NCBI GenBank assembly: GCA_951406725.2
Contig: OX597820.1
Location: 71,238,001-71,302,000 of the forward strand
Reading direction: 5' to 3'
DNA length: 64,000 nt
Source of the DNA: Octopus vulgaris
Lineage: Eukaryota
In this document: positions 4,669 through 64,000 of the stretch, in pieces
Position numbering within the stretch: the first letter of the stretch is position 1
Layout: every line of letters starts with the position of its first letter
Notes under the pieces: generated by a model
Told to the model about the DNA's origin: nothing
Seen by the model: the letters and a program-made list of their open reading frames with translations, nothing else
Databases searched by the model: none
Program-made: the position numbers and the translations under genes

Positions 4669-4794
4669 TATATATATATATATAAATATATAATCATAAT
4701 TGTTTAACATCGGCCTTCCATGCTGACATGGGGTGAACAGTTTGCCAGGAGCTGGCCAAGTATGGACGTGTAATAAACATATATATATATATAT

Positions 4795-8446: not shown

Positions 8447-8469
8447 TATATATATATATATATATACTA

Positions 8470-16121: not shown

Positions 16122-17504
16122 TTAAACATATCACTCGCTTCTCTTCCCGGATGCATCATTTCTCTGTTGAGCTTCATGTTAGTCATAAGTCCTTTTAATC
16201 TACTGCTCTCTAGAACTCACTATCTTCTTATTTTCCTCTGGTCTAAAGTACTCAGTTCTTCAAGCTTTCTGGCAACTGGTGCCTTTTGAATATAGAGGCC
16301 TTTTCTTTTTCCTTCTTTACAATTTCTTATTACTACAGTGGCCTCAAGACTTGTTTGAAACAAAATCATAAAAAAAGTTTAGCTTATTTTCTACAAATAT
16401 TTTCTGGTTTTCCCTATTTCAATGCAGAATGGGAGAAACTGTTCATTATACCATCACCTGATACCTTTAATATTCTATAATATTAAAACACTTCACACAT
16501 TGTCTAATGATTTCTTCTTGTTAGCCTGAAATTTTCTGCTCCTTAAATAATATCATATTTCAACTAAGCTCTTCTCTATGACAGCCCATTTTCAAATGCA
16601 AATGTGAATTTCAATCCTCAAGACTTACTGAAGTCATGTCATAAATGCTAGATAGCACCACCAAGTATGTGATTCATTCTCTCCCACCTTCTCATCACAC
16701 ATTTTAAAAACTATTGTGTTTATCATGTGGCTGGATCTAGTAGATGGAAAATGTAGGAAGCACATAGTATGTGTGAATGAGTGTGTGTGTGTATGTATGT
16801 ATGTTTGTATGTGTGTGTGTGTGTCCGTGTGTGAGAGTGAGTGACAGAGAGAGTGTGTATGTGTGAAATTTAATAATCGATTTGAATTGTATGTTTTTTA
16901 ATCATGTTATAAAAAAAGAGGGCAGTTCCAGCATTTTTGTCTTGACATGGCATGATAGCTATAAGTGAGCAGCACTATTATGCAAACTGTGTTGTTTGCT
17001 TCACTGATAACATCTCCAGCTGAGGGAAAAAATACTTTGCTTGAGAACAGATAATGGTTGGCAACAGGAAACACATCCAGCCATAAAAAGTCTGTTTCGA
17101 TGAAGTCTGTCCGACCCATGCAAGCATGGAAAAAGGGAATGGTAAAATGGTGATGATGATGATGGTGGTGGTGGTGGTGCTGGTGATATATGTATGTATA
17201 TAAGTAAGTGCAGATATATATATATATATATATATATAGAAAGAGAAAGCAAAAAAGAGGTGGAGAGAGAAAGATACATACACACATAGACAAGGCACAC
17301 ATACATATATGGTAGAATGGAATCGATTTTTTCATCTTCATTCTGGGTTCAAATCCTGTCAAGGTTAACTTTCCTTAACTTTCCCTTTCATGTTTTTACG
17401 GTTCAGAGAATAAGAACTGCCATATATTGGGTCAATTGTTTTGACTGCTCCCATCATCTCTTCATCCCCTAAAAATATCTAGTCTTGCACTGATATCAGA
17501 ACTC

Positions 17505-19375: not shown

Positions 19376-19461
19376 TTATATTTATACATATACATATATA
19401 CCTACACATTTGTACATATATGTTTATGTGTATATACATATATATATATATATATACACAC

Positions 19462-19687
19462 ATATCATCATCATCATGATCTTCATTCAACGTCCGCTTT
19501 CCATGCTAGCATGGGTTGGACGGTTCAACTGGAGTCTGGGGAGCCCGAAGGCTGCACCAGGCCAGTCAGATCTGGCAGTGTTTCTACAGCTGGATGCCCT
19601 TCCTAACGCCAACCACTCCGAGAGTGTAGTGGGTGATTTTATGTGCCACCGACACAGGTGCCAGACGAGGCTGGCAGACGGCCACGT
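19462..19687 (-). mobile_element. RTE LINE 3' tail fragment
   Basis: Same tail as 4795-5225, with one minisatellite unit. Confidence 0.8.
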
Positions 19688-19764
19688 ACATATATATTTA
19701 TATGTGTGTATATATACATTTATATACATATGCATGTGTACATATATATGTATATGTGTGTGTG

Positions 19765-20375: not shown

Positions 20376-20807
20376 ATACATACAGACACACAGACACATA
20401 CATACATAAATACATGCATACTGATATATATATATATATATATATGTATCATCATCATTGAATGTCTGTTGTCCATACTGGCTTGGATTAGCCAGTTTGC
20501 CATGGAGCTGTCCAGCCAGGTAGCTGTCCAGGCTCCAATTGTCTCTGGTGGCATGGTTTCTATGGCTGGATGCTCTTCCCCACATGAACCATTTTACAGA
20601 GTGTGCTGGGTGCTTTTTATGTGTTACTGGTATGGGCGCATTTATGCAGCACCAACACGAATGCATTTTATATGGCACCAGCACCTGTAAATGATAAGCC
20701 TATATGTATAGATGACAGCGATTTTACTTAACTTGGCACATCTACTCAAGTACAGCATATCAGCACAACACACAGTTGTTTGTCATATATATTCACACAT
20801 ACACATA

Positions 20808-21692
20808 TGTGGTCTGATCAATAAGTATCTGGACTGTTGCCATAGTAACGAAGCTTAAGCACACAGAGCGAAACTGATTGGTACAGATTGACCTTGCTGT
20901 GCATGAGCACTTGGTTTTAACATTCTAGCTCACTTCTGTTGTTTACAGCAGTACTTGAAAGGAAGGTGTGTAGCATGTGATTGTCGTATTAATCGTAACA
21001 GAGAAAGCTGAGCAGGGAATCTGCATCAAATTCTGCCAAAAGCTTGGCAATACTTGGTCAGTGGTTCATGCAAAGTTTTCAGAAAGTTTTCATTGTTCTC
21101 AACACAGTCAAGATCTTGTGTAACTGAAACCCGAGTATTGTTTTGATCAGCTGAAAGTAGTTTTGGCACAAACTTGGCAGACATACGTCTCATACCCAAA
21201 TCTTCATTGAAAATGGACGGAACTGAACTGTAACTAATCTGCACATCCTCTGATAACTCACAGATGGTAATTTGACGATTTCCCCTCACAGCTGCATAAA
21301 CATCTGAAATGTTTTTCTCAGTTCTGCTGGTTGTGGGTCTCCCAGAGCGTTTCTCAATATCAACAATATTTTGGTCATCTTGGAAACGTCTGAACCACTT
21401 GTACGCTTGTGTGCAGCTCATACACTCCTCTCCATACACTTTCTTCAACTTTGTGTAGGCCTCTGAGCAGCTATTACGATGACAACTTTCTCTGTCATGG
21501 TCAATGCGATGATCACACGCTACATGCCTTCCTTCCAAGTACTGCTGTAAACAGTGGAAGTGAGGTAGAATGTTAAAACTTTGTGCATATGCACAGCGGA
21601 GTTTAAAGTCAATCTTTGCCAAGCAGCTTCACTCTGCGCGCTGTAGCTTCATTATTAATGCAACTGTCCGGATATTTATTGATCAGCTCTTG
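20808..21692 (-). mobile_element. Non-autonomous mariner derivative (same family as 5228-6105)
   Basis: TA-flanked ends GGTCTGATCAATAAGTATCTGGAC / GTCCGGATATTTATTGATCAG. ORF 21026-21622 gives a mariner N-terminal HTH (KVYGEECMS..QAYKWFRRF..RSGRP..AKFVPKLL) with the catalytic domain deleted. Confidence 0.85.
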
Positions 21693-29829: not shown

Positions 29830-30182
29830 GAAACTTCAATATTGATGGAGTGATCCCTGTGCTGGTGGCACATAAAAAGCACCATCTGAAAGTGGCTGAT
29901 GCCAGCGCCGCCTTGACTAGCTTCCGTGCCGGTGGCACGTAAAAAGTACCAATCTGATCGTGGCTGTTGCCAGCCTCGCCTGGCACCTGTGCTGGTGGCA
30001 CGTATAAAGCACCCACTACACTCACGGAGTGGTTGGCGTTAGGAAGGGCATCCAGCTGTAGAAACACTGCCAGATCAGACTGGAGCCTGGTGCAGCCCTC
30101 TGGCTTCCCAGATCCCAGTTGCACCGTCCAACCCATGCTAGCATGGAGAACGGACGTTAAACGATGATGATGATGATGATGA
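29830..30182 (+). mobile_element. RTE LINE 3' tail with ~3 minisatellite units
   Basis: GTGCYGGTGGCACRTAAAAAGCACC-type units, then GGTTGGCGTTAGGAAGGGCATCCAG and (GAT)n. Confidence 0.85.
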
Positions 30183-30810: not shown

Positions 30811-33800
30811 TAGTCATATATTGCTTTGTAGAATTAAAAATAACTCCCCAAGTGCTGCCTGAACTTTAAGAGTTAACCTCAGTAATCACAGAATTCCTGT
30901 GTGGATTAGCAATTCTCTTAGTTTTGAAAAATGTGTGTCCAACACAAGTCTGTAGAAGGAGGAGCTCTTTGTCAAGTTATATTATATTGATTTATAACAT
31001 AGAGAAAAGACTTTAAATGTAGGGGATGGATATAGTCATTTAGATCAATACAAATGCACAACTGATACTTATTTTATCAAACTACCCCCAGAGGGATCTA
31101 AGTCAATGTCTGTGGAAACATGATTGTAGCTTATTTTTAGAACATTTTTGCAAATGTTTACCAGTATGGAAGTTTATTTCACACTGTACTATTGAAATCA
31201 TCCAGTAATTTTTCAAAATGTTTATGTTGTAGTTGTTGGACACTTATGAAGATTTAATTTTGAATTTCAATCTACATGTCATTGTGTAATCGTCTGATTT
31301 GAATGAATTTTGACTGCTGCTCTTGTCTGACATTGTCTGACGCCAGATTCTACATGGTAAATAGATTTGAAATATCACACTTGTGGCTATTGTTATTTTG
31401 AATCAATAGCATTAATTTTTAACCTATTGAAGACAGGATTGTTTTTTCAATAAATGTTATGCACAATCTTTCAACTTAGAATTACATAGGATTTTAGAGT
31501 TACTTCATTGTGTTTTCTTACCTAGTTTCTTTCTGTATTTCTGTAATGTATTTGTTTGGTTCCCTACTCAGGAGATTCGCTGGCAACAATTTTCTGAAAC
31601 TTGTTTATGATTTACTTCTGCAGGTTATACTATGATATTGGCAAATAAATCCACAAACTTGTTTGAAGTCCTTGCTCAGGGATAGCAATATAACATCCTA
31701 ACCAGCCATCATCTATTAGAGTCAACTCTTCCACACACACTCATGCATCTGCTTAACTTCTGAAGCAAGAGCTATAAAAGAAACAAACCAACAACCTTTT
31801 TGAATCTTCAAGTAATTCATTTCCAAAGAAAAATTACCTTCATCTGCCTCACAACTACAGAGGCATTACTCTCTTGTCTCTAGATTCAAACTTCTACAAT
31901 TCTATGCTCTTTGTTTCAATGCTTAATGGTCTATGTATATGTGTCTTAGTGTCTATGCTTATCCCCCACCACCACTTGACAAACAGTGTTGGTGTGTTTA
32001 TGTCCTCGTAACATAGCAGTTCAGCAAGAGATGAATAGAATAAGTAGCAAGCTTAAAAAAAGGACTGGAATTAATTCCTTTGACTAAAAGTTCTTCATGG
32101 TGGTGCCCCAGCATGGCCACAGTCTAATGACTGAAACAAGTAAAAGATAAAAGATAACAAGAAAAGAGGTATCTTACTTTTGAATGCTGGAGTGTGCAAC
32201 TGAATCTAATTCATTGTTAAATTTCAATTTAACATATGCAATGCATATTTTGTTGATTTCACCTCTTCATAGATATTTGGAGAGATGTATATAGAGAAGT
32301 ATAGTGAATTATTAAAAGAATGTAAAAAAATGGTGGTAGTGGGGATGGGGGAAGCCTCTTTAACAATACTTAGCGTAGTTTCTACCTTGAAGACATATCA
32401 TACAACTGCTTCAAGATTACAACCATATTCTGAAGTGCTTGTTATCTGGATTATCTACGTTTAACCTTGATATCACAAAGTTCTTTGACCGTGAAATATT
32501 ATTCAAAGAACTGAAAATAAATAATTAATATATAAGGATTGCTAAATATTTGGCAGAAACAGTAAAGTTAGCAGCAGTGAAAAAGAGAAAAGAGGAATAG
32601 AAAGCAAGGAAGAGTATGAGTGTGGGAGAAATGAGAAAATGAGAAGAAGAAACATGAAAAGAAAAAGAAGCAAGAGAAACTAAATCTATGTCAGCTTTTC
32701 ATACTATAGAGGAATGACTGAAAATTGTTTGTAATTCTATTAAGAGGTTAGGCCATCATTATCATCATCTAAATTGATTTCCATGTAGGCGTGAGATGGA
32801 TGGTTTGACAGAAATTGGTGAACCAGAGGACAGCATCAAATGCCAGTGTCTGCTTTGGTATGGTTTCTATGACTAGTTGTCCTAGTCATGTCACCAACTA
32901 TCTTGTAAGACAAGACCATCAACTGAGGGAGAGTTGTATTGAGTGATGAAAAGTTAAAATGAGCAAGAACAAAAACCTACAAGAAATTTACTCCCTCATA
33001 TGTGGTCCAAACAGATCAAAGGCTGATTCATCAGACAGCATTTGCCTAATGTGTTTGAAAACTAATAGTATTAACAAACTTAGTTGTACTGCAGAATAAG
33101 ATGCATAGGACCTACTAAATGACAAATTCATCACAGGATCTTGGAACATTTCAGCAAAACCTTACATAATACCTGGTGCAGTGTTCCTATGCAGACTGAC
33201 ATGAGGAAGAAAAGTGCATCACCACAGGTCTTAGCAGAAAACCAAAATGTAATAAATGTTCAGAAATCCAAAAGATATTTCATTAATAAAAAAACTACAT
33301 CTTACTCTGAGCCACCAGAATGGAATGGACACATGGAAATATATATACTGTTTCTCCAAAACGTAATCATGTTTGGCTACCCGGTTATTAATGTCATAAC
33401 AAACACACAAACAATATGTTTGATGGTGGAATTCTGAAGTCTGAAAGTTCTCATAGCACAATTGGACAGCAACAATGATTCTAGTAACACAGCTCAGTCT
33501 ACAGTTATTTGTTTGGTAATTCTGCTGATTTCCCTTAATATCTATCTATCTGTCTACCATCGCCACCACCATCACCATAATTTAACATCTATTGTTCCAT
33601 GCTCGCATGGGTCGGACGGAATTTTATGAGGCAGATTATCAATATCTGCACATCTGTCCTGTCACCAATCCTCACCTGTTTCCAAATAAGGTATTTCGCA
33701 TAGCCAGACATGTTTCTCCAAAGAAGACTGCAAGTGAATAACATTTGATAATAAACTAATACTGCACAGTCAGAATTATAAAGAAAATCAGTTTCAGTTA

Positions 33801-34940: not shown

Positions 34941-36219
34941 GGGCCTACACTTTTATTATTTACAGCATAAACACAATAAGTTTAAATTTGATTTTAAGTT
35001 CAATTATAGGACCTCATTTGATAGCATAACATTTTAATATTGTTTATATTCATACGTATAATCTATTTACATGAGTACAATGGGATCTCAAATACAATGC
35101 AAACCCCACCTTTTGCATCTGAAAATCAGCAATTTATATTTTATCCTTAGTTATACTTAAACATAATGCTACCCAGTATTTTTGATCCTGATGATTTGAT
35201 GATTTATATTAAATTTCTCACATGATATATGTGAAAATATGGTACACACTCACACAGAAACATATATATCATCATCATCGTCGTCGTTTAACGTCCGCTT
35301 TCCTTGCTAGCATGGGTTGGATATATATTGATATATATATCAATATATATATTGATATGTACATACCTATATGTATATGGGTTCTTGTTTTGCAAGGTAC
35401 TTGGTAATATCATTGATGCTGGTGCCGTGTAAAAAGCACCCAGTACACTCTGTAAAGTGGTTGGCATTAGGAAGGGTATCCGCTATAGAAACCATGCCAA
35501 AACAGACTATTGAACCTGTGTAGCTCCTGTCAAACCGTCCAACCCATGCCAGCATGAAAAGCAAGTGTTAAATGATGATGATAATGATATGTAGACATAG
35601 ATGCAAGAATAGTATTTTTAGCCTGCCAGCCTTCCTTGAAATTTAATTTGGCTTTATGTAGTCTCTAATCACTTTGTTTTTTCTGGAGTAGGTGGAGCTA
35701 TGTTGAATGGTAATTAGAGTATGCTGTGATGAAAAGGTATTATAGAAGGTTTGCATTGACAAAAGTTGGAGTTGTGTCATTATTCAGAGTTCAGCCATGA
35801 ATGTGAAACTATGTAACCATGTATGTCTATTTAGATGTGTCAGCTTCAGGTCTTAGGATCATATTTCAGAGTTACCAAAAAATGTAGATAGGTGAAAAGG
35901 TTAGTTGGTTAACAAACAGGTGAAAGGGTTAGTTGGTTAGTAGACGTGTAACTAGGTTTAATTGTTATTGATGTTATTTGAACACTGTTTGAAACATTCA
36001 ACCTGTTTTAGGAATGTGGAGATTATTCTTTACTTCAATCTGGGATGTAAAACTTTGTAATTAGGTGAGTTTATTTAGGTGTGTTAGCTTTAGGTAATGA
36101 TTTTAGTATAGAAATTTGGTTATCTCTTGTTTTAAGGGTTCACATAAGTATGTAAGTAGTTGGAAAGGTTAGCTGGTCAGCAGATTTCTTTAATTGTTAC
36201 ACTGAAAAAAAAAAAAAGA

Positions 36220-36552: not shown

Positions 36553-39500
36553 ATTTAAACACTATTTAAGAAAGATAACTTGTTTTGTTTTAGGTAGGCA
36601 GAAGATATTGTTCAGAATTCAGTCAAGCATGTAAAACTTTGTAACTAGGTGAGTTTATTTAGGTGTATTAGCTTTAGATCATGGTGTTTTTAATAGAGAA
36701 ATTTATTCATTTTTTGTTTTAGAGTTCACAAAGGCTGTCGGTTGGTGGAAAGTTTAGTTGGTCTGCAGATTTCTAACAAGGAGTTAGTTGTTTTTGATGT
36801 TATTTGATTACAATTTAGAAAATTTAACCTTTGTGTTTTGGTGAGCTAAAGTTTGCAGAATATATTTTTATAAATATTTCTTCTGTTTGGTTTCAAGCGT
36901 GGGTATTCATAATGATGATCATCATCATTTGAAGTTACTTTTCCATGCTGGCATGAGTTGGATAGTTTGACAGGAGTTGGCAAAGCTGGGAGCTGCACCA
37001 GGCTTTGTAGTCTGTTTTGGCACCCTTCTTAATGCCAACCACTTTACAAGGTGTATTGAGTGCTTTTTACGTGGCACCAATACCAGTGATTTTAACGTGA
37101 CACCAGCACAAACTAGGTCACCAAATACATTGCAAGATATAAGTCTCTCTACTGGGAGGGGAGAGTAGTATTGAGGAGGTGTGGCTTTGTGCCAGTTGAG
37201 AGATTAAAGGTATAGAGGGATAGAGGTACATGTCTTATTGTAGAGTAGATACATGGATACTCTAGTTGGAAAAGAAGGAGTTAGAAAGAAATATAAAGAG
37301 AGTGATAGTAAGAGAGATGATGGCAAAGATAAGTTGGGGCATGCCCTGGAAGAACATTAGGCATGGTGAGAATAAGTGAGGTGATACAGAAGTTCGGACT
37401 GGGTGAGCGGGTAGGATTGTAGTGACTGTAGCAAATGATGGAGAAAAATATGAGAGGCTTGAAGGCAGGGGTTGCGACAAAAATGTGCAGGGATTGAGGG
37501 TGATAGCAGATAAGTGAGGTGTTAATAATGTTTATAACATGTTATTTTGGCCCTATGAATATATGTAAATGTGGAACATCATAAATATGTGTGCAGATAT
37601 AAATTTTTCAGCCAACAACTTTTAAAAGAAGTTAGGTGTAATTTGAGGCAAGTTCGGTCATTATTTCTTGCTTTTGAGTAACCACATAGCAGTTCCCTCA
37701 TTACACATTAAATTAAAGAGTTTAATCAGAGATCCAGTTACTGCCTTATACCTTTGAACTGAAAAATTTTGAGTTGGTTTAAGATTGATGTGTCGTTTAT
37801 AATTCCGGGATCAAATAAATATTTATTATTCTAAAATAATTAGTAAAATTTATGAGTGATACAAATGACAACCATTCTTCCCTTTGCGTAAAAATCAACG
37901 CAAGTGTCGGCTTAAACAAAGCGTAACATATGTCAAAAAGTCACTTTTTATATGTACTCATAATTCTGGCAACTTAATTACACAAATAACAGGAAACAAA
38001 AATTAAGAAATGTTTCTTTGAAGTAAATTATTAAATTTTCTTTAGTATTAATAAGTTTTTAGTAAGACTTAAAGTAAGAAGATTGCATCATCTTGAACAG
38101 CTCATTACTGTCATAAAAATAAGTCACTAAATATCTTGTTATTCAGTATTATTTTGTATTTTTATTATGATGGCGGAAACAATTATTTGTGAATAGATTT
38201 GATGAAGCAGTAAGCTATTGTAGTTTTTAAAGCAATAAGAACTCTCTTGTCAAAGAAATTATTCTCTACTTACTCAAACTATATTTAGTTTTATATTTTC
38301 ATATTTAATTCTGCTCAAACATAAAACTAAAATTCTTGAAAGTACTTGAATATACTTATTATAGATATCAGATGAATGAGAAACTTTTATATCTGTAGTC
38401 GGGAACATTCTCATGCAACATTAATGTTACTTAGGAGAGAGCAATACTATTAGAAATAGCTGAATTACTGAGTTCTCTCAAGAGTAATAAAGCAAATATA
38501 AGGTGTTTAAAAATGGTTTATTTTATATTTTATATATACACATATATTTATTAATTTCTTTTATGTCACATTTTGTGAGCAGTAACCTTATTAGCTATAT
38601 GTGACAAAGGGGTGTCTTGTGCAATTCAGACAGAATAAATACCATCAGCTATTTTCTTTGTCTTACCTGATTATTGACAATCTCCTTGCTACTGCGTATA
38701 TCTTTCCCATCGAAATTAAATCTTCCACATAGCTATTCTACTTGATGTTCAAATATAGAGTCATTCCTTGTGGAAATAGTTGCCTTAATCTCAGTATTAT
38801 GATAACCCTACCATACGTGTATATATATGTTCCTATACTTGTTTCAGGTATTAAACTGCAGTCATGCTAGAACATTGCCTTACACCCCAACCACACACAC
38901 ACACTCAAACAGTATGGATTTTTCTACCAAACAAATAATTTCCCTCTATTTCTTCCTCTCTATCTCATCTAGCTTGCACTACCCTCACTATTTCCAGTGT
39001 TTTATACTAATTTATGGTCACTACTAGACTGTCATTGTCTATAGGTCTGTTTAATCATGGTTACCTGAAACTAAACAAGAATGGGTAAGGCAATTGCTCT
39101 TTTACCTGTGTCAAACTTATGATTAAAAAAAAACCCCAAAAAATCATCCAGCAAAATAACTATTTTTTAATCATAGGTCTGCTGTATGTCATTAATGCAA
39201 CATAAGGCATTTGAATATTCAATTAAGGCATGAAATGAAAACTTTTGTGCTTTTTTAATTTTATCCATCTGAAAGACAAATATTAGGTTAGTATAAATAA
39301 AGAGGAATAACTATAAGCCACAGCAGTAAACATAAATTGGTTGTGGATTTATCTTCATACACAGCACTCAGTCACAAAACTACATTATAACCTCACCTAT
39401 AATAAGGTTATTTAATGGAACTCTTTGAGAAAAGCTATGTTAACAACTTAATCACTGATAAAAGTGCTTATACAAATACGTAACAATATGTGCTGTAGAA

Positions 39501-44156: not shown

Positions 44157-44457
44157 CATTAAGCTATACAAACACTGGGCTACAAATAACAGCCAATTCT
44201 CCCTAAAATCTCACTCTGCAGCCTTAAAAAAGAGGAATACGTTAGCAGTACATGGTGTGTAGGGACCCCCCCCCCCAAAAAAAAAAAATTTTTAGATTGA
44301 ATGGTTTTCCTCAATGGTCTTAGAGCGCAGAGGTGGTACTCCCATTAATTATATAATTCAACACTTTCTTCTCCTTTAGAAATGAATATGCAGCGTCAGA
44401 ACTCTGAATGTATGGCAAAATATCATAAAAACATTTTGAATAACAATAAATCGAATT

Positions 44458-47359
44458 GGTACTTGTCAATTGTCGTGGTCCCGGTTTTGCACACGCGAAT
44501 TCGCGCGTGCGCGCCAGACGTAGGTACTCGATACTCGAGATCCTACGAGGTGACTTGCGCATGCGCAGTGCAGAATTCGCGCGTGCGCGTTAACCCCCCC
44601 CCCTAAAAAAAAAAGGTGTTGGATTTCACTAAAAATATATGTGTGTGTGTGTGTGTGTATATATAACATTTTCAATTTTACACAAAAAAATTACATAGTC
44701 GCTTTCCTCGCGGATTTACAGAGAAATGAATTAATTACTATTTTACAGAATAAAATTAATGAATTAATTATATAAATTAAATAATTCTTGAAAATTAATT
44801 AATATTAATAATATTTTTTGAACAAAGTAAATAATTTATAAAACTTGGTTAATAATTTTTTTTACACAAACGCGAACGTATATAATTTGTGAAACTTTTT
44901 TTTTTTACAGACGTATATAATTTGGTAAACTTAATGAATTAATTTCTTCTCATCATCATCATCGTTTAACGTCCGTTCTCCATGCCAGCATGGGTTGGAC
45001 GGTTCGACCGGGGATCTGGGAAGCCAGAAGGCTGCACCAGACTCCAGTCTTATCTGGCAATGTTTCTACAGCTGGATGCCCTTCCTAACGCCAACCACTC
45101 CGAGAGTGTAGTGGGTGCTTTTTACATGCCACCCGCACAGGTGCCAGGCGAGGCTGGCAACGGCCACGGTCGGATTGGTGCCAGTCGAGGCGGCTCTGGC
45201 ATCGGCCACGATTCGGATAGTGCTTTTTACGTACCACCAGTCCAGGGGTCCTGGCATTTGCCGGGTGCCACACTTGCCCCAACATGTCTTCGCAAGCAAA
45301 GGGGGTTGGCATGGGTGCCTGTCGTGGGATGAGGTTCGATATCAACTTCGCTTGCCTCAACAGGTCTTTGTGTATAAATGTATAAATTTTTCGCACTAAA
45401 TTCTTTCCGTAGAATTTATAAAAAAACGCGCAAAATTATTCCGTAGACTTTATCAAATTAAAAAACGCAAAATTAATATATTTTTTGAAATTGCAAATTA
45501 TTTAGAATATAAAACAAATTAAGTTAAATTTTAAAAATAAATGTCATATACTTATACTCTGTAAGGTGCTGTGTTCACACTTCAATTTACTATTTTCTAG
45601 AAATGTTGCTTTTCTAATTGAAACAATTTTTCTCAATCTCCATTTAAAAGTCCATAATGCCTCTTGAGCCATATCAAAATGAACAACTTTGAATTACCCG
45701 GTGGTGGTGGTGGTGGTGTGAGGTTCTAATTTTTTTTCTGATCTCTCTTTGCCCCCTCTTTATCTCAGTTGTTCATTCAGCTAATATTTAGAAAAATTTT
45801 CGCGCCCAATTTTTGTTGTCGCGGGAAAAGATGAACGATTTAAAATAAATATATCTTAATTGTAGTGTGAGAAAGTATATATATTCTGATGACAAAATAT
45901 ATTATCTTTCAAAAACATCCCAAATTTATAGACTATATCGTGTAGGTTTAAGAAATATATATATATATATATATATAGATATAGATATATATATATATAC
46001 ATATATAAGTAGAGAATGAAACATCTTTCATCTGTCTCCCCACCACACCTCCATCTAGGGGGGGCAAAGAGAGATCAGAAAAAAAATTAGAACCTCACAC
46101 CACCACCACCACCGGGTAATTCAAAGTTGTTCATTTTGATATGGCTCAAGAGGCATTATGGACTTTTAAATGGAGATTGAGAAAAATTGTTTCAATTAGA
46201 AAAGCAACATTTCTAGAAAATAGTAAATTGAAGTGTGAACACAGCACCTTACAGAGTATAAGTATATGACATTTATTTTTAAAATTTAACTTAATTTGTT
46301 TTATATTCTAAATAATTTGCAATTTCAAAAAATATATTAATTTTGCGTTTTTCAATTTGATAAAGTCTACGGAATAATTTTGCGCGTTTTTTTATAAATT
46401 CTACGGAAAGAATTTAGTGCGAAAAATTTATACATTTATACACAAAGACCTGTTGAGGCAAGCGAAGTTGATATCGAACCTCATCCCACGACAGGCACCC
46501 ATGCCAACCCCCTTTGCTTGCGAAGACATGTTGGGGCAAGTGTGGCACCCGGCAAATGCCAGGACCCCTGGACTGGTGGTACGTAAAAAGCACTATCCGA
46601 ATCGTGGCCGATGCCAGAGCCGCCTCGACTGGCACCAATCCGACCGTGGCCGTTGCCAGCCTCGCCTGGCACCTGTGCGGGTGGCATGTAAAAAGCACCC
46701 ACTACACTCTCGGAGTGGTTGGCGTTAGGAAGGGCATCCAGCTGTAGAAACATTGCCAGATAAGACTGGAGTCTGGTGCAGCCTTCTGGCTTCCCAGATC
46801 CCCGGTCGAACCGTCCAACCCATGCTGGCATGGAGAACGGACGTTAAACGATGATGATGATGAGAAGAAATTAATTCATTAAGTTTACCAAATTATATAC
46901 GTCTGTAAAAAAAAAAGTTTCACAAATTATATACGTTCGCGTTTGTGTAAAAAAAATTATTAACCAAGTTTTATAAATTATTTACTTTGTTCAAAAAATA
47001 TTATTAATATTAATTAATTTTCAAGAATTATTTAATTTATATAATTAATTCATTAATTTTATTCTGTAAAATAGTAATTAATTCATTTCTCTGTAAATCC
47101 GCGAGGAAAGCGACTATGTAATTTTTTTGTGTAAAATTGAAAATGTTATATATACACACACACACACACACATATATTTTTAGTGAAATCCAACACCTTT
47201 TTTTTTTTAGGGGGGGGGTGGTTAACGCGCACGCGCGAATTCTGCACTGCGCATGCGCAAGTCACCTCGTAGGATCTCGAGTATCGAGTACCTACGTCTG
47301 GCGCGCGCGCGCGCGCATTCGCGTGTGCAAAACCGGGACCACGACAATTGACAAGTACC
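44458..47359. mobile_element. 2.9-kb non-coding fold-back DNA transposon (Merlin-like termini)
   Basis: Arms 44458-45756 and 46060-47359 are near-perfect reverse complements around a 303-bp spacer. Termini GGTACTTG...CAAGTACC. Perfect 8-bp direct repeat ATCGAATT at 44450-44457 and 47360-47367. Confidence 0.88.
44951..45372 (-). mobile_element. RTE LINE 3' tail nested in the left fold-back arm (mirror copy at ~46441-46862 on +)
   Basis: (CAT)n, RTE tail and minisatellite units; the ORF-track translations are identical in the two arms. Confidence 0.9.
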
Positions 47360-50300
47360 ATCGAATTATAGCTAAATGAATAATATTTTATTTCACTTTC
47401 AAAATTGTTTTATTTTCACTTAATGACGAGCGCAAGTCCTCTCTTCATCATGAAGTACCAAGGCAGCGAGCTGCCTTTACGTTCTGTGTTCAAATTCCAC
47501 CGAGGCGACTTTGCTTTTCATCCTTTCGAGGTCGATAAAATAAATGTAATCGATTTATTCCTTCCTCGAAATTACTGGCCTTGTGCCAAAATTTGAAACT
47601 AATCTAGAGGGGCTTCTGCTCGGTCACTCAGATTGCTGGAAATAATTAATAACTTAATTTTCTTAAATTACATAGTGAATAAAAGGGTAAGATAGGACCA
47701 CAGAATTTAGTGTAGACCTAGATATACAAAAAGACGGAATGATCGTGGATGGAACGTCTTTTCTATAATCCCTGTCCCATGTATAATAACAAGTACTGAA
47801 CGTAATCTCCGAGGGTTCCTCTGTGTTGTCGATCGAGCCATTAGAAATAGCAGCTAGACAGACGCAGAATTCACTTTTCGTTTGACATCTAAAAATTTCA
47901 TTTTGTTATTTCCCTCTTTGCATTTTTTAAAATGTAAATTACAAGCCTTATCAGGGAATACTATAACAAAAATAATTTGAATCGTGAAAAGTACGACGGA
48001 GGTGATGGGTTACGAAAAATTTTCTCCAAAAATGCGATTCAAAATGTGGAATATTACAACATGTCAAAGGATAACGAAAATGGAGGAAAAAATGATAGCT
48101 GTTGTTTGGAAGGAAGGATGACGTGGAAGAAGCGAGATGGACTTTTTAAAAAAAAGTCTGCTCTCAAATGTTTTGAAAAGTGGGATTCTATAAAATGAGA
48201 GGAAAAAAAAGCTTCCGATTTATGTGTGACAGCTATTCCGAAAATCCGCCCAATCGCCATATAATTGTCGCTCAACCTGTCTGTCAAATAATAGGCGCGG
48301 AACTGGCAGTCATTTGAGTGCAAGGCTTATGGTTTTGAGTTCAAATCTCATTGAGAATTACCTTTTATCTTTTTTAGACTCAATAAAATAAAGGATGGTC
48401 CTTGTGAAAGTGAAATACATACACCATATGAATAAGGTACGGGAATCCTTTATCGAGAAGTGGGCCGCAATGAGACGAAGCTCATCAACCGGGTCGCACA
48501 AATAAAAAAGTTCAAGGTTTTTCAATGGCATACATTGCAAAAAAGTCCTGCGTACCGTAGTTTGCCCGTAACTCATGAATATACTACAAAGCCGTAATTG
48601 TTTTGTACGGTTTTACTTTTCTCGAACGGTATAGTGGAATTTAAAGTAGGTTGTTTCTAATATAGCACAAAAAACCCTAAGAAAAGAAATGAACAAAAAA
48701 TGGAACAATAAATGTCACATAAAATTCAAAGTTAGTTCGCATTATTTTACATGGTGTTTCATGAAAAGAATGAAAGCAAATATGCCATTTGACAGAAGTA
48801 AAAAATACTGCTTTCTGATTTAGGCAAAAAGACATTTTGTGGAGCGTGGTAACTGACAATTATCAACATCAGTACCTAACTGATACTTTATCTACTCTGA
48901 AAGTCAGAGTTGATATCAACAGTCTTTGAACTCAGAATGTAAAGGGTCTGAATAAATTTCGCATAGTGGAAGTTGTGAATTAGAAGAATGGCGAACCTTC
49001 GGTGTAAGTACCGGAAGTACTGGATACATTTCAAAAAAGTGTTTTTTTTTATATATGGGGGCGGGGGCTGTTTAGGGTTTGGGTTAGGCATGGGAGAAAA
49101 GGGTTTCTGTTATCTTCAGAAATGTAAACAAAGTCACTCGTGTACATATACCGAAGCATCGCCAAGGGCAATCTTTCGGTATTGGTACGCAACGTCATTT
49201 ATCCACACAACCTTCCTTCATGATATAAAGAGGCTAGTCTCGTCTCCTGATACCGACTCTATAGACAATTGTCGAAGGATCACCATGGAGAAATACCGCA
49301 AGATATCTCCTTTCAACGTTCAAACGATTTAACACCACCACCCGGTCCTTAGATATTTCCAAGTATTTCTTCCGACGCTCTGCAACCTCGCCGCTTTTTT
49401 GTGCCAGAATTAAGATACACGATGCTCGAATATTTGTGATAAACTCATTTTAGGCGCTGACCTGGCCTAAAAGCAACGACTATTCATTATTAAGCTAAAT
49501 AAAGAACTTGAAAGTTGCTTAAATGAAATAATTTCTCATTACTCTAGGGACAAGTAAAACACACTAGTTAGATTTTTGAATAAGGAAAAGGTTAAAAAAT
49601 ATTTTTGTGGCATTAAATCACCTTTTGAAGTTTACATTTGTTTTTCTTTTGCCACAGTTAAGAATCTCAGTATGTTTTCATATATGAAAAAGGAGTATAT
49701 TAAAAGGAATGCAAAGCCTGTTTGTATTGTGAACCTCAACACGTTACTTTATTGTTCTTTTCTTTTTATTTTTCTCCAAATAACTATTAGTTCTTACATC
49801 TCTTTTAATATTCTTTTTTATGTGACAACCTGCTGAGATTCCTAACACAAACAATCTTTGCATCTTTTTTTTTTTAGTATGCTTTTTCATATATAAAAAA
49901 CATGTTGAGGTTCATAACACAAACATTCTTCTCTTCCCTATTAATGTACGCTCATGAACACAGAAGTTCTGCCGTGACGAAAAAATAAAAATGAAAACCT
50001 AGAGAAGTTGTTACGGAAGCTAAAATATTTTTTTATCCAAGGAAAATCTAGCTTTAAATGTAAAACATCACATACATCCCGTACATCATTACATAATCCA
50101 TTTAAGGTTAACAAGTATAGTGTCGAAAAATTCGCTTCTTTTTTGTACCCCGAAAGCGCTATTCGGCATAGTTTGTACAATTATATAATGTTGATGTAAC
50201 CGCAGTTTAGTCATTCGTATTTTGTGAAAGCAATTACTTGGAGAATTAATTGTATTTCTAGGGAATAAATATTGTAAATGATGTTTGCATTCTGTTTCAT

Positions 50301-50774: not shown

Positions 50775-52390
50775 AATCTTTATTATAGGCACGATGGCCC
50801 GAATTAAGAGGGGACATTACAAAACAGGACATAGGGTACATATAATTAAAAAAATCGAAAAATATGAAGTGAAAATGAATTATTTATAATGAATTAAATG
50901 GAATGGCTTACGAGCCCCCCAAAACTCGCAGTTTCATTTAAAATACTGGACGTTCATCTGTAATGTATTCTATTAACCTCTCCTGGTCTACAATCGCTGG
51001 CAAACTGTTGTAACAGATATATGGTATTTCGCAAACAGTCGAAAACACACTTTTCAATTTCATCAATGTCTCTTTCTCTACGACTGCCGACTTCACTTGG
51101 TCATCAAATATTTTGGGGTTCAACCTAACCCTGATTAAACCTTTCTTACCTGCCAGTCTCTTTTCGATTTCTTTGTCTTTCATATACAATATTACTGCTT
51201 TAAGATTTTTTCCTTCGGGTCTTCCTCCTTCCTTACATACTTTTAACTGTTCTTCCACTCTTCTTTCCCATTCTTGCTCTGCCGTTAAATTTGCCGGTTC
51301 TCTCGCTTTCGCTTTTGCATCCTTATCTTCGCACGTTCGATCTTCCATCTCGTCTGTAGTCTTATTTTTCGCTTTTTTCTTTTTTTGAACTTTAGGTGGT
51401 GATTCCACCCTCGCTCTCTTTCTATCTTCTTTTCCTTCTGTTCTTTCCTTTTCTTTCTCCAACTCGTCACCACTTTCCACATTTTCTGTCTTCACACATT
51501 CTTCATCCGCCATTTGCAATATCTCTGTCCGAGCTTCCAATGTTCTCGTCGGACACACATCTTTCATGTGGCCTCTAATTTTACATGTGTAGCACACTGG
51601 GGGGGGGTCTCCCCTCCACCACGACTCTGAGTCGTGTCTCGTCGGGGAACACCAACTCCTCTGGGATATTATACAGGTCTGGCATGGTTATATGAACCAA
51701 AGCCTGCACCGCATAACCCCACAACTGTACATCTTTTGACCTTTCCACCTTCAATATTTCAACGCTTTCTTTGCAGTTGAATACCACTGCCGCTAAGATT
51801 CCTTCCATGTTCAGCTCCGGCGAAATCTTACTGATTCGCACTCTTACTGCCCCCTTTCCACAACAACTTGGTAATAACATTCATTTTTCTGTTTTCAGTA
51901 TTTGCGTGGCACCCTTCTTCGCCTCGTCCTTGTTTTTAAAATGAACGACCACTGTTGCGTACTTTCTACCTCTATTATAGAAGGTAGGTTCTCCCTCAAT
52001 TCCATTCAGACAGCACTCAATTTCCTCTATCGGTGCCACTTCTATTCTCTTTGAAGTCACGCTCCACGCTCCGTATGTTATAGTACGCTTCTCTGCCTCT
52101 TTCGCTTCCTCTTCGGATGGTGCGACCTTCACACAGTCACCCTCTTTCTTCAAGCTGTCGAAACATTTCTTCAAAATCTCCTTCTCGATGATAACTTCTT
52201 CCAACTGCAATTCGCTCGCAGCCAGGCCCCCGCCTGCCGCTCCCGCATACGTTTGGGTTTGCATTTTCGAGAAAAACCTCCCAAAAATCTCCCACGCTGC
52301 AACTGCTTCCACCAACGAACTCGATCTCACAACCGCGACACAACAATAACGCAATCAAAATTTCCGACACAAACAAAAAAAACCGTATTC
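50775..52390 (-). mobile_element. ORF1-only L1/Tx1-like non-LTR element
   Basis: Short 5' leader, a single gag/ORF1-like frame, a ~150-bp 3' UTR and AATAAA at ~50779-50784. No endonuclease or RT follows. Confidence 0.6.
50938..52264 (-). pseudogene. ORF1/gag-like zinc-knuckle protein with one in-frame TGA (51881-51883) and one frameshift in a G/C run (~51599-51607)
   Basis: N-terminus MQTQTYAGAA (TYAxAA, as in L1/Tx1 ORF1), VVVEGRPP-VCYTCKIRGHMKDVC (CX2CX4HX4C knuckle) and a K/E-rich linker. Confidence 0.7.
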
Positions 52391-53628: not shown

Positions 53629-54062
53629 TGTAAGTGTTCTTAATGCATTTCGTAGATAAGAAGAAAAGTCATTGTTTTATAACTATGTGATTTGAAAACT
53701 TTAACCGCTGCTATATTAAATTACAATTCGGGTCTATTTGAATCAAAATAGATTTGGTTCAGTTGTTTGCATTGATGCAGAAACAAAAATACCTCATTAA
53801 GTATAATGATTACACTCAGGTAAAGTCGAACTTGGATAATTTAAGAAATTTTATCCGCGGTCCTACTCACGACTGTGATCAGATCTTAAAAATTAATGTT
53901 ATCTTCCAAATTAGGCAGCTTAATTTTTATACACGGGACCTTGGAAAGACTTCCGCCCGATCCCCCCGCCCCCATTTTCTCCCAAATTTGTTCAGTAATT
54001 TTTTTATTTTTGCCAGAAACCCCCGGCCATAAATCAGTATTGTTAAATCCCCACCCTTCCCC

Positions 54063-54115
54063 CCTAAAACCCTAACCCTAAAACCTTAACTCTAACCCCT
54101 AACCCTAACCGTAAC
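54063..54115. repeat. Short degenerate (CCCTAA)n telomere-like tract
   Basis: CCCTAAAACCCTAACCCTAAAACCTTAACTCTAACCCCTAACCCTAACCGTAAC. Confidence 0.7.
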
Positions 54116-59374: not shown

Positions 59375-59630
59375 TTTGAGTTGGTTGTTATTCATGTGAA
59401 ATGGGGCATTGAACAATCTTTATTAATACTGAATGTTGCCACTATCCATATATGAAACAGCAAAGGAATGCAAGATGAAGGAAGGATTTTGAATTTTAAA
59501 GTTGTCAGGTGAATTTGAGTTGGTTGTTATTATGTGAAATGGAGCATTGAACAATCCTATTAATGCTGAATGTTGCCACTACACATTGTATGATGTAGCA
59601 AAGGAATGGAAGTTGAAGAGAGGATTTTGG
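59375..59630. repeat. Imperfect tandem duplication (~138-bp unit)
   Basis: TTGAGTTGGTTGTTATT...GTGAAATGG.GCATTGAACAATC...GAATGTTGCCACTA occurs twice. Confidence 0.7.
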
Positions 59631-60845
59631 AACTTTTAAGGTGTCTGGTGAATTCAAGAGATTAAGAAACTTGAACCTTTGTATTGTTATCAAATAAGGA
59701 ACAAGGCTAGGATTTATCGGTTGGTTGTTATTGATAAAAAGAAAGTAATAGAGAAATGAAAGAAATTCAGTGTTATTGCTCAACACATTTAAAGATAGCA
59801 TAAGCATTGAAGAAGCTTGGAATCAAGGTAGTCAATATTGAAAATATTACATGATATAAGCACAAGACCATACACTTTTATGGGAGGGAAAAACTGATTT
59901 ATTCAGCTCATGGTTTTGTTGCAAATAAGGAAGCCATCTATGTTATATATGAACTAAGCTTGTTTTGCTTTTCAATAGGCATTCTAAATAGACTGTAATT
60001 AGATTTTTAAGTAGGTGTTAATTATTTCTAGAATGTCAGAATTATATAAATGCTACAGTTGCACATTTCAAAAAAGTAGTAAGCTGCATATCTGAATAGT
60101 CTCATACTGATAAGCTAAATAGAAACCAATTGATATGAATAGAAGAAAGAGAATAGCTTTGATATCACAAAAACAATATTATTTTCTTTGAAGAAAGCGC
60201 TTTGAAATAAATCATTAGGAGTCCTCTTTGGCTTGAGAGATGCAAAACAATGAAACAACACAAGTTAGATTAATATATTGCAGAAATTTTAGTAGCCACT
60301 GAAAATAAATTTACGAGCAAATAAATGCTGCAGTTTTATTATAATTATTTATATGTTGGTTTTAGTATTTTTCAGATGACTAAAACTGACATGAATCAGG
60401 TATATTTGTACTGAATATTTGAAAAAAACAACTGAAGTTTAGTGTTGTGATTAAGTATTACACAGCAAGAGTAATAGTCTTTCCTTTAGTGGGAATTGGT
60501 ATTTAATTAGAACATAAAAATTTGTGTTTTTAAATATTAAGTGTAAAGCTATTTTGAAAGGCAGGAAGTCATATATAATTTGTCAATATTTTAACATCCA
60601 CTTTCCATGCTTGCATTTCTCAGATACTCATCATGTTGCCAAGCTTCACTTGTTTTCAAGCAGTGTAATATTTCCCCATTGCCGGGTATGTTTTCACTAA
60701 AGGTTCGAGACAAACACAACATATATGTATGTTGCACTCATTTACAACTAGTGCACAATATTGAAACAGGGAAATACAAACATATACACACAGACATGCA
60801 CATGTGCTTGCTTGTGTGTGTGTATACATGTTTGCATGTATATCT

Positions 60846-61140
60846 TCATCATCCTTTAATGTTTAATGTCCACCTTCCATGCTGGCATGGGTGGTACGGT
60901 TTGACAGGAGCCTGCCAGGCAGAAGCCTGCACCAGATTTCTGTGACTGTTGTGGCAGGATTTTTACAGCTGGATGCCCTTCCTAACACCAACCACTCAGC
61001 AGAGTGGACTTTGTGCTTTTTATGTGGCACAAGCATAGGCAAGGTTTTTACAGCCCTTCCAAATGCCAACCACTTTACAGTATGGACTGGATGCTTTTTA
61101 AGTGGCACTTGCACTGACAGGGTCATCAAGTAGCTTGCAT
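60846..61140 (-). mobile_element. Older RTE-type tail fragment
   Basis: TTCCATGCTGGCATGGG...CAGCTGGATGCCCTTCCTAACACCAACCACT. Confidence 0.65.
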
Positions 61141-61542
61141 GACAAAAACTTTTGAGAGGGGAGGGGCAATTAGAGGAGGTGATCTTGTGTCAGATAATGA
61201 AAGGTTGTAGTAAGACAGGTGTTTTGCTGTAGAGGAGGTACAAGGTTACGAGAGAGAGAGCTTACATTGTTGAAATCACATTCACTTAAAAATCATGTAG
61301 TTAAGAAGTGAAATTCTTAACTATATAACCAAGTTGTAAACTAGATTAAGAATCAAATTTACTTTCATTATACACATCATCATCATCATCATCATTTAGC
61401 GTCCGCTTTCCATGCTAGCATGGGTTTGGACGGGTCAACTGGGGTCTGTGAAGCTGGAAGGCTTCGTCAGGCCCAGTCAGATCTGGCAGTGTTTCTACGG
61501 CTGGATGCCCTTCCTAACGCCAACCACTCCGCGAGTGTAGTG

Positions 61543-62218
61543 GGTGTTTTTTTACGTGCCACCTGCACAGGTGCCAGACAGAGCTGGCGAACGGCCACGA
61601 ACGGATGGTGCTTTTACGTGTCACCGGGACGGGGCCAGGCAGAGCTGGCAAACGGCCACGAACGGAGGGTGCTTTTACGTGTCACCGGCACGGGGGCCAG
61701 CCGAGGCTGACAACGAACACGAACGGATGGTGCTTTTACGTGCCACCGACACGGGACCAGACAGAGCTGGCAAACAGCCACAAACGGACGGTGCTTTTAC
61801 GTGTCACCGGCACGGGGGCCAGCCGAGGCTGGCAACGGACGCGAACGGATGGTGCTTTTACGTGCCACCGACACGGTTGCCAGACAGTGCTGGCAAACAG
61901 CCACGAACGGACGGTGCTTTTACGTGTCACCGGCACGGGGGCCAGCCGAGGCTGGCAACGGACACGAACGGATGGTGCTTTTACGTGCCACCGACACGGG
62001 GCCAAACAGAGCTGGCAAACGGCCACGAACGGACGGTGCTTTTACGTGTCACCGGCACGGGGCCAGACAGAGCTGGCAACGAACACGAACTGATGGTGCT
62101 TTTACGTGCCACCAACACGGGGGCCAGGCAGAGCTGGCAAACGGCCACGAGCGAATGGTGCTTTTACGTATCACCGGCACGGGTGCCAGACGAGGCTGAC
62201 AGCGGACACGAACGGATG
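61543..62218. repeat. Minisatellite of 11 units of ~61 bp in the RTE 3' UTR
   Basis: GGTG(C)TTTTACGT starts at 61543, 61607, 61668, 61729, 61790, 61851, 61913, 61974, 62035, 62095 and 62157. Confidence 0.95.
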
Positions 62219-62266
62219 GGTCACTTAACCCCTGCTTTCTGATATATGATTTGATTTTGATTGTTC

Positions 62267-64000
62267 TCACTGGTCTTGCCGGGTCTTCTCACACACAGCA
62301 TACTTCCATAGGTCTCGGTCTCTGGTCATTTCCTTGGTGAGACCTAGAGTTCGAAGGTCGTGCTTCACCACCTCGACCCAGGTTTTCCTGAGTCTACCTC
62401 TTCCACAGGTCCCCTCAACTGCCAGGGTGTGGCACTTTTTCACACACCTATCTTCATCCATTCTCGCCACATGACCATACCAGCGCAATCGTCTCTCTTG
62501 CACACAACATCTGATGCCTCTTAGGTCCAACTTTTCTCTCAAGGTACTTACACTCTGTCGACTATGAACACTGACATTACACATCCAACGGAGCATACTA
62601 GCTTCATTTCTCGCGAGCTTACGCATGTCCTCAGCAGTCACGGCCCATGTTTCACTGCCATGTAGCATGGCTGTTCGTACACATGCATCATACAGTCTGC
62701 CTTTTACTCTGAGCGAGAGGCCTTTAGTCACCAACAGAGGTAAGAGCTCCCTAAACTTTGCCCAGGCTATTCTTACTCTAGCCATTACACTTTCAGCACA
62801 CCCACCCCCACTACTGACTTGGTCACCAAGATAACGGAAGCTATCAACTACTTCTAGTTTTTCCCTCTGGAAAGTGACGGAAGTTGTTTTCTGCAGATTT
62901 TCAGAGATTAATGCTCCCGAGCATCTGCCACATACAAAAACCATCTTCCTAGTTAGCCTTCCTATGACATTGCTGCACCTCTTATGTGTCCATAGCTTAC
63001 ACTTGGTGTATCTTATAGAGTTTCTACCTACACCTTTTCTACAGATCGAGCAGGGCCATCTACCTGAAGGTGTTTGTGATTTGTCTACCTTCCTACTTAT
63101 TACGACTTTGGTTTTAGCTAGGTTGACTCTAAGGCCCTTAGATTCTAAACCATGCTTCCACACCTGAAACTTCTTCTCCAGTTCTGATAATGACTCAGCA
63201 ATTAGAGCAAGGTCATCAGCATAGAGGAGCTCCCAGGGGCATCCTGTCTTGAATTCCTCCGTTATTGCCTGGAGGACTATGATAAATAGGAGGGGGCTGA
63301 GGACTGAGCCTTGGTGGACCCCTACCTCTACCCGGAATTCTTCACTGTACTCATTGCCAACCCTCACCTTACTAGCAGCGTCCCTGTACATGGCTTGCAC
63401 AGCTCTCACTAACCATTCATCTATTCCTAGTTTCCTCATTGACCACCATATGAGGGATCGGGGGACCCTATCGAAGGCTTTCTCCATGTCAACAAAAGCC
63501 AGGTACAGGGCCTTATCTTTGGCTAGGTATTTCTCCTGCAGCTGCCTTACCAGGAATATAGCATCAGTGGTACTTTTCCCTGGCACGAAACCAAACTGCA
63601 TCTCATCTAAACTAACTCTCTCTCTAATTAGTTGGCTTATGACCCTCTCTGTAACCTTCATCACCTGATCCAACAGCTTGATACCTCTGTAATTATTTGT
63701 ATCTAGGGCATCACCTTTACCTTTGTAGCAGTTGACTATTATGCTGCTACACCAGTCATTGGGTATGACTCCTTCATGTATCACCTGATTAACTATACAG
63801 GTGACTAGGCTATAGCCGACACTACCAGATATTTTGAGCATCTCTGCAGTGATACCTGATGGGCCTGGGGCTTTCCCTGTCTTCATGCTTCTAATTGCCT
63901 TAGCTACCAAGGAACTATCAACCCTGATAGCTGGTCCCTCTGTTGGGTCAACGTTCGGCAGACTCTCTTTATCCCATTCATTTTCTTTATTCAGCAACCT
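62267..64000 (-). CDS. RTE LINE ORF, 3' part (reverse transcriptase with an inserted Cys/His finger); 5' end lies outside the window
   Basis: 576 uninterrupted codons containing KAPGPSG, NYRGIKLL, QFGF.PG.ST.DAIF, FVDMEKAFDRV, GVHQGSVLSPLLF, LYADDL, FRYLG and RLRWYGHV. Confidence 0.95.
   Translation of the reverse strand, partial: RLLNKENEWDKESLPNVDPTEGPAIRVDSSLVAKAIRSMKTGKAPGPSGITAEMLKISGSVGYSLVTCIVNQVIHEGVIPNDWCSSIIVNCYKGKGDALDTNNYRGIKLLDQVMKVTERVISQLIRERVSLDEMQFGFVPGKSTTDAIFLVRQLQEKYLAKDKALYLAFVDMEKAFDRVPRSLIWWSMRKLGIDEWLVRAVQAMYRDAASKVRVGNEYSEEFRVEVGVHQGSVLSPLLFIIVLQAITEEFKTGCPWELLYADDLALIAESLSELEKKFQVWKHGLESKGLRVNLAKTKVVISRKVDKSQTPSGRWPCSICRKGVGRNSIRYTKCKLWTHKRCSNVIGRLTRKMVFVCGRCSGALISENLQKTTSVTFQREKLEVVDSFRYLGDQVSSGGGCAESVMARVRIAWAKFRELLPLLVTKGLSLRVKGRLYDACVRTAMLHGSETWAVTAEDMRKLARNEASMLRWMCNVSVHSRQSVSTLREKLDLRGIRCCVQERRLRWYGHVARMDEDRCVKKCHTLAVEGTCGRGRLRKTWVEVVKHDLRTLGLTKEMTRDRDLWKYAVCEKTRQDQ

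Follow-up and report, generated by a model that had tools for sequence, protein, structure and literature searches.

The 64-kb stretch of Octopus vulgaris DNA analysed here (henceforth the window) carries, directly behind the reverse transcriptase (RT) frame of a minus-strand LINE, a tandem array of 11 units of 60–62 bp (61547–62219, minus strand) aligned head-to-tail and running from 62219 to 61547 in LINE sense. The array is probably a hypervariable minisatellite (VNTR) in a chimeric LINE 3′ UTR, a passenger generated by misaligned copying, while the RT would recognise the stem-loop and the (ATG)n stretch at the very end of the element. The evidence comes from the array itself, from the differing unit numbers of related tails in the window, from folding and covariation analyses, and from the likeness of the tail to the ends of bipartite elements.

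The array and its host LINE

The tandem array is confirmed. TRF reported a period of 61 with 10.9 copies (score 851) as well as a period of 122 with 90% matches (score 1036), and the highest score among 50 shuffles of the region was 52, so the 11 units of about 61 bp that an earlier note on this DNA had counted stand. Its near-invariant core also holds: the 13-nt core GGTGCTTTTACGT is exact in 10 of the 11 units and, when up to two mismatches are allowed, matches 18 times in the window against 1.1 expected. The last unit carries a longer T run. In units 4–9, two variants (A and B) alternate, showing 3.3 differing positions within parity and 13.0 across; over units 1–10 the values are 6.2 and 11.9, and the 2 equally extreme splits among 252 are the parity split and its own mirror. 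Together with the TRF period of 122 this agrees with the higher-order repeat of about 122 bp claimed for the middle units. The centre of the array is homogeneous and its edges diverged, with 1 difference between units 5 and 7, 4–5 among units 4, 6 and 8, and more in the edge units. The units abut end to end with no unique spacers and, as had been stated, are not CRISPR-like.

The 3′ UTR is about 890 nt long. In LINE sense the stop codon (62267–62269, minus strand) is followed by a 47-nt spacer (62220–62266), close to the roughly 50 bp given before, then by the 11 units, a 42-nt motif of a 5′-UTR type (61484–61525), about 50 nt, a predicted two-tier stem-loop (61400–61432) with homologues in two related loci, and (ATG)7 (61375–61395), the microsatellite 3′ end. 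Upstream, an open frame holds the C-terminal 577 codons of ORF2 (62267–64000, minus strand), i.e. the RT, a degenerate PHD finger and a C-terminal region; the endonuclease part lies beyond the window edge. The RT domain (63080–63712; Pfam RVT_1, E 1.8e-32, residues 97–307 of the frame, P0001) includes YADD. The PHD-finger-like region (62921–63052) matches at E 0.066, versus 0.00017 in the Octopus protein P0256, and has lost residue 331, a near-invariant zinc-ligand position in the alignment, at which this copy (henceforth the 61-kb copy) differs from nearly all the sequencing-run contigs compared. The RT had been called intact, which is right for the 577 codons in view and goes too far for the whole, since the frame exits the window and that PHD residue is gone.

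The closest named protein is a predicted protein of Octopus vulgaris (85% over 53% of the query). Full-length relatives of 1,011–1,130 aa show 48–57% identity, most with an endonuclease (Exo_endo_phos) and RT and often with a PHD finger; in one locus, L013, endonuclease, RT and PHD lie in one frame. The host LINE is likely of the RTE clade, judging by its architecture (the single ORF of its relatives), its microsatellite end and its tail stem-loop. RTE-clade elements of octopus are indeed similar in having the RT followed by a zinc-finger region (RTE-2_OV, PMC9115989; RTE-BovB expansions, PMC8967140), a single ORF with endonuclease and RT like that of the relatives of the window LINE (about 1,050–1,100 aa in these, 1,109 aa in RTE-2_OV; PMC9115989), a microsatellite 3′ end and very high abundance in the host (PMC9115989, PMC8967140), as far as the available text of these sources goes; what we could access of PMC13282606, PMC8967140 and PMC9115989 also describes RTE-type LINEs as abundant and active in octopus.

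RT relatives were absent among 116 candidates in viral contigs and present in 18 of 92 candidates in genome contigs, of which the best 8 were analysed, the other 10 being weak (22–34% identity). The animal-type LINE ORFs in L012–L019 (36–50% identity) sit within bacterial MAG records of GTDB and are likely eukaryotic contamination. One of them is named as a Terriglobia reverse transcriptase (P0239), and P0298, labelled Escherichia coli and 81% identical to the window's RT, likely carries the same kind of error. One sequencing run contained the unique flank 61261–61366 with no difference, and all 30 bins of the element were covered by its contigs. Among the runs listed for this sequence none was labelled as RNA; X12 may be one. 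Summed contig depths, which are not copy numbers, were 14.9 million in the tail bin, 1.5–3.8 million in the ORF bins, 0.5–2.2 million in the array bins and 74 in the unique flank (run X1); joints within the array were few and ambiguous, and raw-read run X23 gave only 13 matching reads. Among the 32 ORF differences listed (from 40 of 181 places), the near-private ones comprised 3 silent and 4 replacing changes, the shared ones 13 silent and 12 replacing.

Unit number among tail copies in the window

A profile search across the 64-kb window returned the unit numbers that had been given for the tails at 5.0, 8.0–8.3, 19.6, 29.9 and 45.1 kb. The most informative of these is an older LINE copy, 5′-truncated and frameshifted (6313–8446, plus strand; henceforth the 8-kb copy), with 4 units plus 1 partial, whose ORF is 85.7% identical in nucleotides to that of the 61-kb copy and which shares with it the motif, stem-loop and (ATG)n in the same order. 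As this second ORF-bearing copy has the same layout, the units belong to the UTR of the family and predate the 61-kb insertion. Three further 5′-truncated copies have several units: one at 4794–5215 (minus strand, spacer kept) and one at 29851–30176 (plus strand, upstream spacer homology weak) with 2 units plus 1 partial each, and one at 44950–45375 (minus strand, with a duplicated spacer block) with 1 full unit and 2 partial ones, its middle unit being internally deleted. The last has an inverted twin at 46.6 kb that ends at 46863 with the same unit count; both are inside one inverted duplication and were counted as a single insertion. This duplication (44446–45759 and 46057–47369; 1.3 kb, 98.8% identical, about 300 bp apart, LINE tail included) may represent a fold-back element or else an artefact of the assembly. 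Two short minus-strand copies are truncated inside their last unit, 19471–19690 with 1 unit and 13251–13441 with a partial unit; the count of 1 at 19.6 kb reflects truncation, because the copy begins inside its unit, and the same applies to the partial unit at 13.4 kb.

Truncation does not account for the rest. In the four independent copies that keep the spacer, unit numbers are about 2.5 at 45 kb, 3 at 5 kb, 5 at 8 kb and 11 at 61 kb, so 5′ truncation alone is insufficient and the differences are true gains and losses; the window offered only 5 readable, independent multi-unit copies in all. The proposal of an expandable array in the LINE 3′ UTR is thereby upheld, as is its independence from mere 5′ truncation, and of the options listed for its origin template slippage fits the differing numbers best. 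With head-to-tail units within the 10–100 bp range and a copy number that varies between paralogous copies, the array has the properties of a VNTR. The UTR is unstable elsewhere too: the 45-kb copy has its tandem spacer block as well as its deleted middle unit, reiterations of 25–30 nt occur at 20.6 and 37 kb, a duplication that includes the motif is found at 61.0 kb, and the spacer of the 61-kb copy is about 130 nt shorter than the longer one of the 8-kb copy, apparently through deletion between two similar blocks. Older tail subfamilies lie at 20549–20690, 35417–35500, 37023–37110 and 60862–61116; in these the reiterated piece is a short GGTGCCACGTAAAAAGCAC-type core (25–30 nt) or that core plus the motif (about 80 nt).

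Folding of the units and of the terminal stem-loop

The earlier note had gone on to propose that the array is a hairpin-rich functional RNA module, and here our results do not follow it. Single units folded on either strand showed no excess stability over dinucleotide shuffles (z −1.4 to +1.4), and the whole array gave z −1.24, with 3 of 20 shuffles equally good. Covariation in the two proposed hairpins over 20 units from 6 copies amounted to 1 pair changed on both sides against 1.1 in shuffles, a count reached by 462 of 500 shuffles. Rfam held no family in the array (its single hit, mir-62 at E 2, was outside it). HDV-like ribozymes occur at RTE 5′ ends; a home-made descriptor of the HDV-like nested double pseudoknot, used without a positive control, matched nowhere on either strand. 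The inverted repeats themselves are present as sequence, though they had been given in plus-strand orientation, antisense to the LINE RNA. On the LINE strand the GTGYC/GRCAC hairpin, with a 3-nt loop, one mismatched pair in A units and one wobble pair in B units, has a predicted probability of at most 0.03 in 10 of 11 units, its arms being predicted to pair between neighbouring units instead, and that of the GCCAG/CTGGC hairpin ranges from 0.02 to 0.98 between units.

Some signs of constraint nevertheless run counter to the passenger reading. The arms of the GCCAG/CTGGC hairpin vary less than the remaining positions of the unit (mismatch 0.065 against 0.182; p 0.009 in a permutation over 20 units), a mild excess of conservation given that the p value is uncorrected, the units are not independent, the stems were picked post hoc and the 11 array units alone give p 0.076; for the GTGYC/GRCAC arms p is 0.25 (20 units). 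In the 9 units from other copies, C>T changes in stems outnumber G>A by 10 to 3 at equal C and G counts, while in the non-stem columns of these units the rates are equal (27 changes in 13 C columns and 21 in 10 G columns); this lean, at about p 0.05 by a hand calculation, points the way that G-U pairing in RNA would predict. Both signals are hints drawn from a small set of related sequences. The core ACGTAAAA is near-invariant in the 11 array units (p 0.03), against p 0.64 in the other 9.

One could accordingly read the units as a selected RNA module, in which repeated GCCAG/CTGGC hairpins and an A-rich single strand would bind the ORF2 protein or a host factor and more units would make a better ribonucleoprotein or a source of small RNAs. 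Beyond the conserved arms around a loop of variable length and the C>T lean, this reading has in its favour that 95% of the cells of that hairpin are paired, that it is the RNAalifold consensus, and that the A and B variants render adjacent units complementary (predicted inter-unit pairing 0.32–0.55 in 8 of 10 junctions, span 150). We think it doubtful, in view of covariation and folding at shuffle level, the erratic probability of the one hairpin and the near-zero probability of the other on the LINE strand, the lack of an Rfam family or HDV-like descriptor match, and the existence of relatives and of a second tail family that have no units.

These relatives bear directly on what the RT recognises, a role that had been suggested for the units. 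The unit profile had no match in the 19 loci fetched. In L012, L013, L016 and L017 (47–50% protein identity) the 3′ end, a microsatellite with no array before it, is reached within about 150 nt of the ORF; the tail of L015 is not clear, and the ORF end is missing in L014, L018 and L019. L013 and L016 have, where their ORF ends, a stem homologous to the terminal stem-loop of the window, and the full two-tier structure is predicted in 5 of 9 window tails. Locally folded, its inner stem has a pairing probability of 0.99–1.0; in a global folding of the 890-nt UTR the values are low (inner 0.35, outer 0.0). Across the alignment 95% of its cells are paired, with 2 compensatory cells, and the score was reached by 11–13 of 500 shuffles, a modest covariation carried by two distant rows and set against shuffles that ignore relatedness. 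RTE-type LINEs are described, in the available part of PMC3747384, as having stringent recognition of a 3′-end stem-loop and microsatellite tails. Because distant relatives keep the stem-loop without the array, recognition is better assigned to it than to the units, and the signal is likely the predicted terminal stem-loop with (ATG)n.

Two observations on tails are added here. A second tail family (14544–14677, 17030–17162 and 33556–33696) has the motif, the stem-loop and (ATG)n with no unit match; from its sequence these copies at 14.5, 17.1 and 33.6 kb are a candidate bipartite SINE. In addition, 3 of 7 tails checked run directly into (AT)n or an AT-rich microsatellite (4760–4800, 8446–8470, 19430–19470), and a target preference is possible.

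The probably chimeric tail and its known counterparts

The 42-nt motif between array and stem-loop is identical at 40 of 42 positions to L013 3996–4037, upstream of the endonuclease-like start of that locus's second element, and matches more weakly (84% over 38 nt) L013 186–221, upstream of the Exo_endo_phos domain of the main ORF, so that its 5′-UTR position is known from this one locus. Its 26-nt core is exact in 11 metagenome contigs, in other repeat families and never with units, while the tail motif scan found 0 loci in viral contigs and 0 in genome contigs. A 6-bp stem inside the motif is 94% paired and shows no covariation. Bipartite RTE elements and SINEs join a 5′-UTR fragment to a 3′ end and exchange parts by template switching, according to the accessible portion of PMC5786205. 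Given the near identity of the motif to an RTE-type 5′ UTR, the tail resembles a captured bipartite end of this kind, and it does consist of an RTE 5′-UTR fragment joined to an RTE 3′ end (stem-loop, (ATG)n). The 24 nt at the 3′ end of the unit also look, by eye, like the beginning of the HaSE1 body (HaSE1 is a lepidopteran SINE), and the tail resembles the HaSE1 end with a similar layout, both judged from the part of the supplement of PMC5786205 that could be read. An identification with the Ceph-domain motif was rejected, the words of the 42-nt motif not being found in the supplement of that source. With a GTCGTAAAAGGCAACTAA-like segment in front of it, the motif also occurs in short repeats of L001 (1290–1360), L004, L005, L007 and L011. 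This segment may be reminiscent of the end of RTE 5′ UTRs that holds an HDV-like ribozyme.

From the sequence we infer that a bipartite element, or else the LINE's own 5′ UTR, may have supplied the long 3′ end of the LINE. The minisatellite would then have arisen in a few steps. An ancestor would have exchanged its short 3′ end, through template switching in reverse transcription, for a 3′ portion taken from a bipartite SINE or non-autonomous element of RTE origin, or for a piece of its own 5′ UTR; a segment of about 60 bp just upstream of the captured motif would have been reiterated, either by RT template slippage or by unequal exchange between the numerous genomic copies; in the lineage of the 61-kb copy two adjacent units would have diverged into A and B, the dimer being duplicated about two times more. 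Target-primed reverse transcription, starting at the (ATG)n end, would produce the copies with staggered 5′ ends.

Base composition gives a different picture. The array has a GC content of 62% and a CpG observed/expected ratio of 1.06, compared with 0.33 in the ORF and 0.16 in the flank, which is not what a passenger would lead one to expect, and unit 5 alone holds 7 CpGs where 2.1 are expected at the ORF rate. The array might act at the DNA level, as CpG-rich monomers placed before a 5′-UTR-type motif and forming an internal promoter at the 3′ end that drives a short tail RNA, or downstream or antisense transcription, with a strength set by unit number. The invariant core includes TACGTG, which we take to be an E-box/HRE-like word. 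The array directly precedes a motif found in RTE-type 5′ UTRs, the available text of PMC5786205 speculates that conserved RTE 5′-UTR domains are functional, and in mouse L1 the number of CpG-rich monomers, whose effect is additive, is variable, as we read in the accessible sections of PMC10620060. By analogy, a captured RTE 5′-UTR control domain and a tunable CpG-rich array might make up a second, 3′-located promoter or RNA-binding module, an unlikely arrangement in our estimate; equally unlikely is its corollary, that such a module, its strength scaling with unit number, would initiate short tail RNAs or drive the host sequence next to it. The short copies begin at staggered points (spacer, unit or core) in the manner of truncated LINE copies, which argues against a discrete internal start, and the CpG richness of a repeat is that of one unit counted repeatedly and is gone in the older units of the 8-kb copy (0.29). 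This promoter thus seems improbable to us.

A separate insertion of array plus tail, as a SINE or a minisatellite, behind the 61-kb copy is very unlikely, and so is growth of the array only at this locus after insertion. In favour of this reading are the bipartite, SINE-like design of the tail and its by-eye likeness, with the unit end, to HaSE1 (PMC5786205, in part); in addition, none of the contig pieces listed spans the array, and its central dimers may have grown at this locus. Against it, the ORF-bearing 8-kb copy, at 14% divergence, shows the same succession with its 5 units; neither an (ATG)n end nor a separate tail divides the stop codon from the units; several copies have spacer blocks in common; and each array bin is covered, at 90% likeness, by contigs from runs X1 and X3. 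Nor did we find the tail as a discrete unit, either with a constant 5′ end or headed by a small RNA, the tail being contiguous with the ORF in 2 copies, the other tail copies having staggered 5′ ends and ARAGORN reporting no tRNA.

Returning to the minisatellite, its closest counterparts each share some of these traits. RTE-2_OV has a 3′ UTR of about 600 nt that is, by its description, mostly microsatellite from the ORF end, whereas that of the window LINE (about 890 nt) consists of spacer, array, motif and stem-loop, and the accessible part of its description mentions no 61-bp array (PMC9115989); the tail motifs were not found in 4 of the 8 readable supplements of that source. The bipartite RTE elements and SINEs (Bov-A, WALLSI, CoeSINE, HaSE1, Ceph-SINEs; PMC5786205, in its available part) are alike in the succession of 5′-UTR fragment, 3′ stem-loop and microsatellite; here, in contrast, it is an ORF-bearing LINE whose 3′ UTR forms the bipartite end; a tRNA or 5S head is absent, and a tandem array comes before that end. 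Variable-copy arrays are also known from retrotransposon 3′ UTRs, e.g. in the Ty3/gypsy element Ogre, the source of the satellite PisTR-A, in HeT-A and in L1 (PMC9659126, as far as accessible), although our host is a non-LTR, RTE-type element with a 61-bp unit and an A/B dimer; a large satellite derived from the 61-bp unit was not seen in the 64-kb window. Mouse L1 5′ UTRs similarly have a variable number of CpG-rich units adjoining a non-repeated UTR segment, but those monomers are about 200 bp long, lie at the 5′ end and have demonstrated additive promoter activity (PMC10620060, same sections), whereas the window units are 61 bp, lie past the stop codon at the 3′ end and have a putative promoter role. 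The open full-text literature, taken without repeat databases and subscription papers, yielded no description of the 61-bp array and none of a 5′-UTR motif in an RTE 3′ UTR.

What the finding means depends on the reading. The 3′ UTRs of retrotransposons, between coding region and 3′ end, are a known nursery of satellites, as the available text of PMC9659126 has it, and with retrotransposon UTRs already established as nurseries of tandem repeats a passenger VNTR would be a small addition. A 5′-UTR domain conserved across distant animals within the 3′ UTR of an ORF-bearing LINE would, if true, reverse the usual traffic, in which SINEs borrow from LINEs, and its presence there would offer a natural handle on the role of this unexplained domain. 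Were transcription or RNA handling tuned by unit number, a very abundant family would carry a heritable dial for its own LINE activity and for genes nearby; what could be consulted of PMC9115989 discusses the brain expression and activity of octopus RTE LINEs, and mollusc SINE domains provide further background in the accessible part of PMC4758252.

Several other features of the window were recorded. Other SINE-like repeats lie at 1650–1845 (minus strand) and 500–1100, one with a tRNA-like head by eye in which ARAGORN saw no tRNA. A Mariner/Mos1-type HTH remnant occupies 21026–21628 (minus strand; Pfam HTH_48, E 2.9e-07), and two open frames of 249 and 157 codons (50938–51687 and 51881–52354, minus strand) have no Pfam match. 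There are also a degenerate CCCTAA-like short run at 54062–54110, a 216-bp tandem duplication with (TA)n at 2379–2823 and a 138-bp tandem duplication at 59375–59654.
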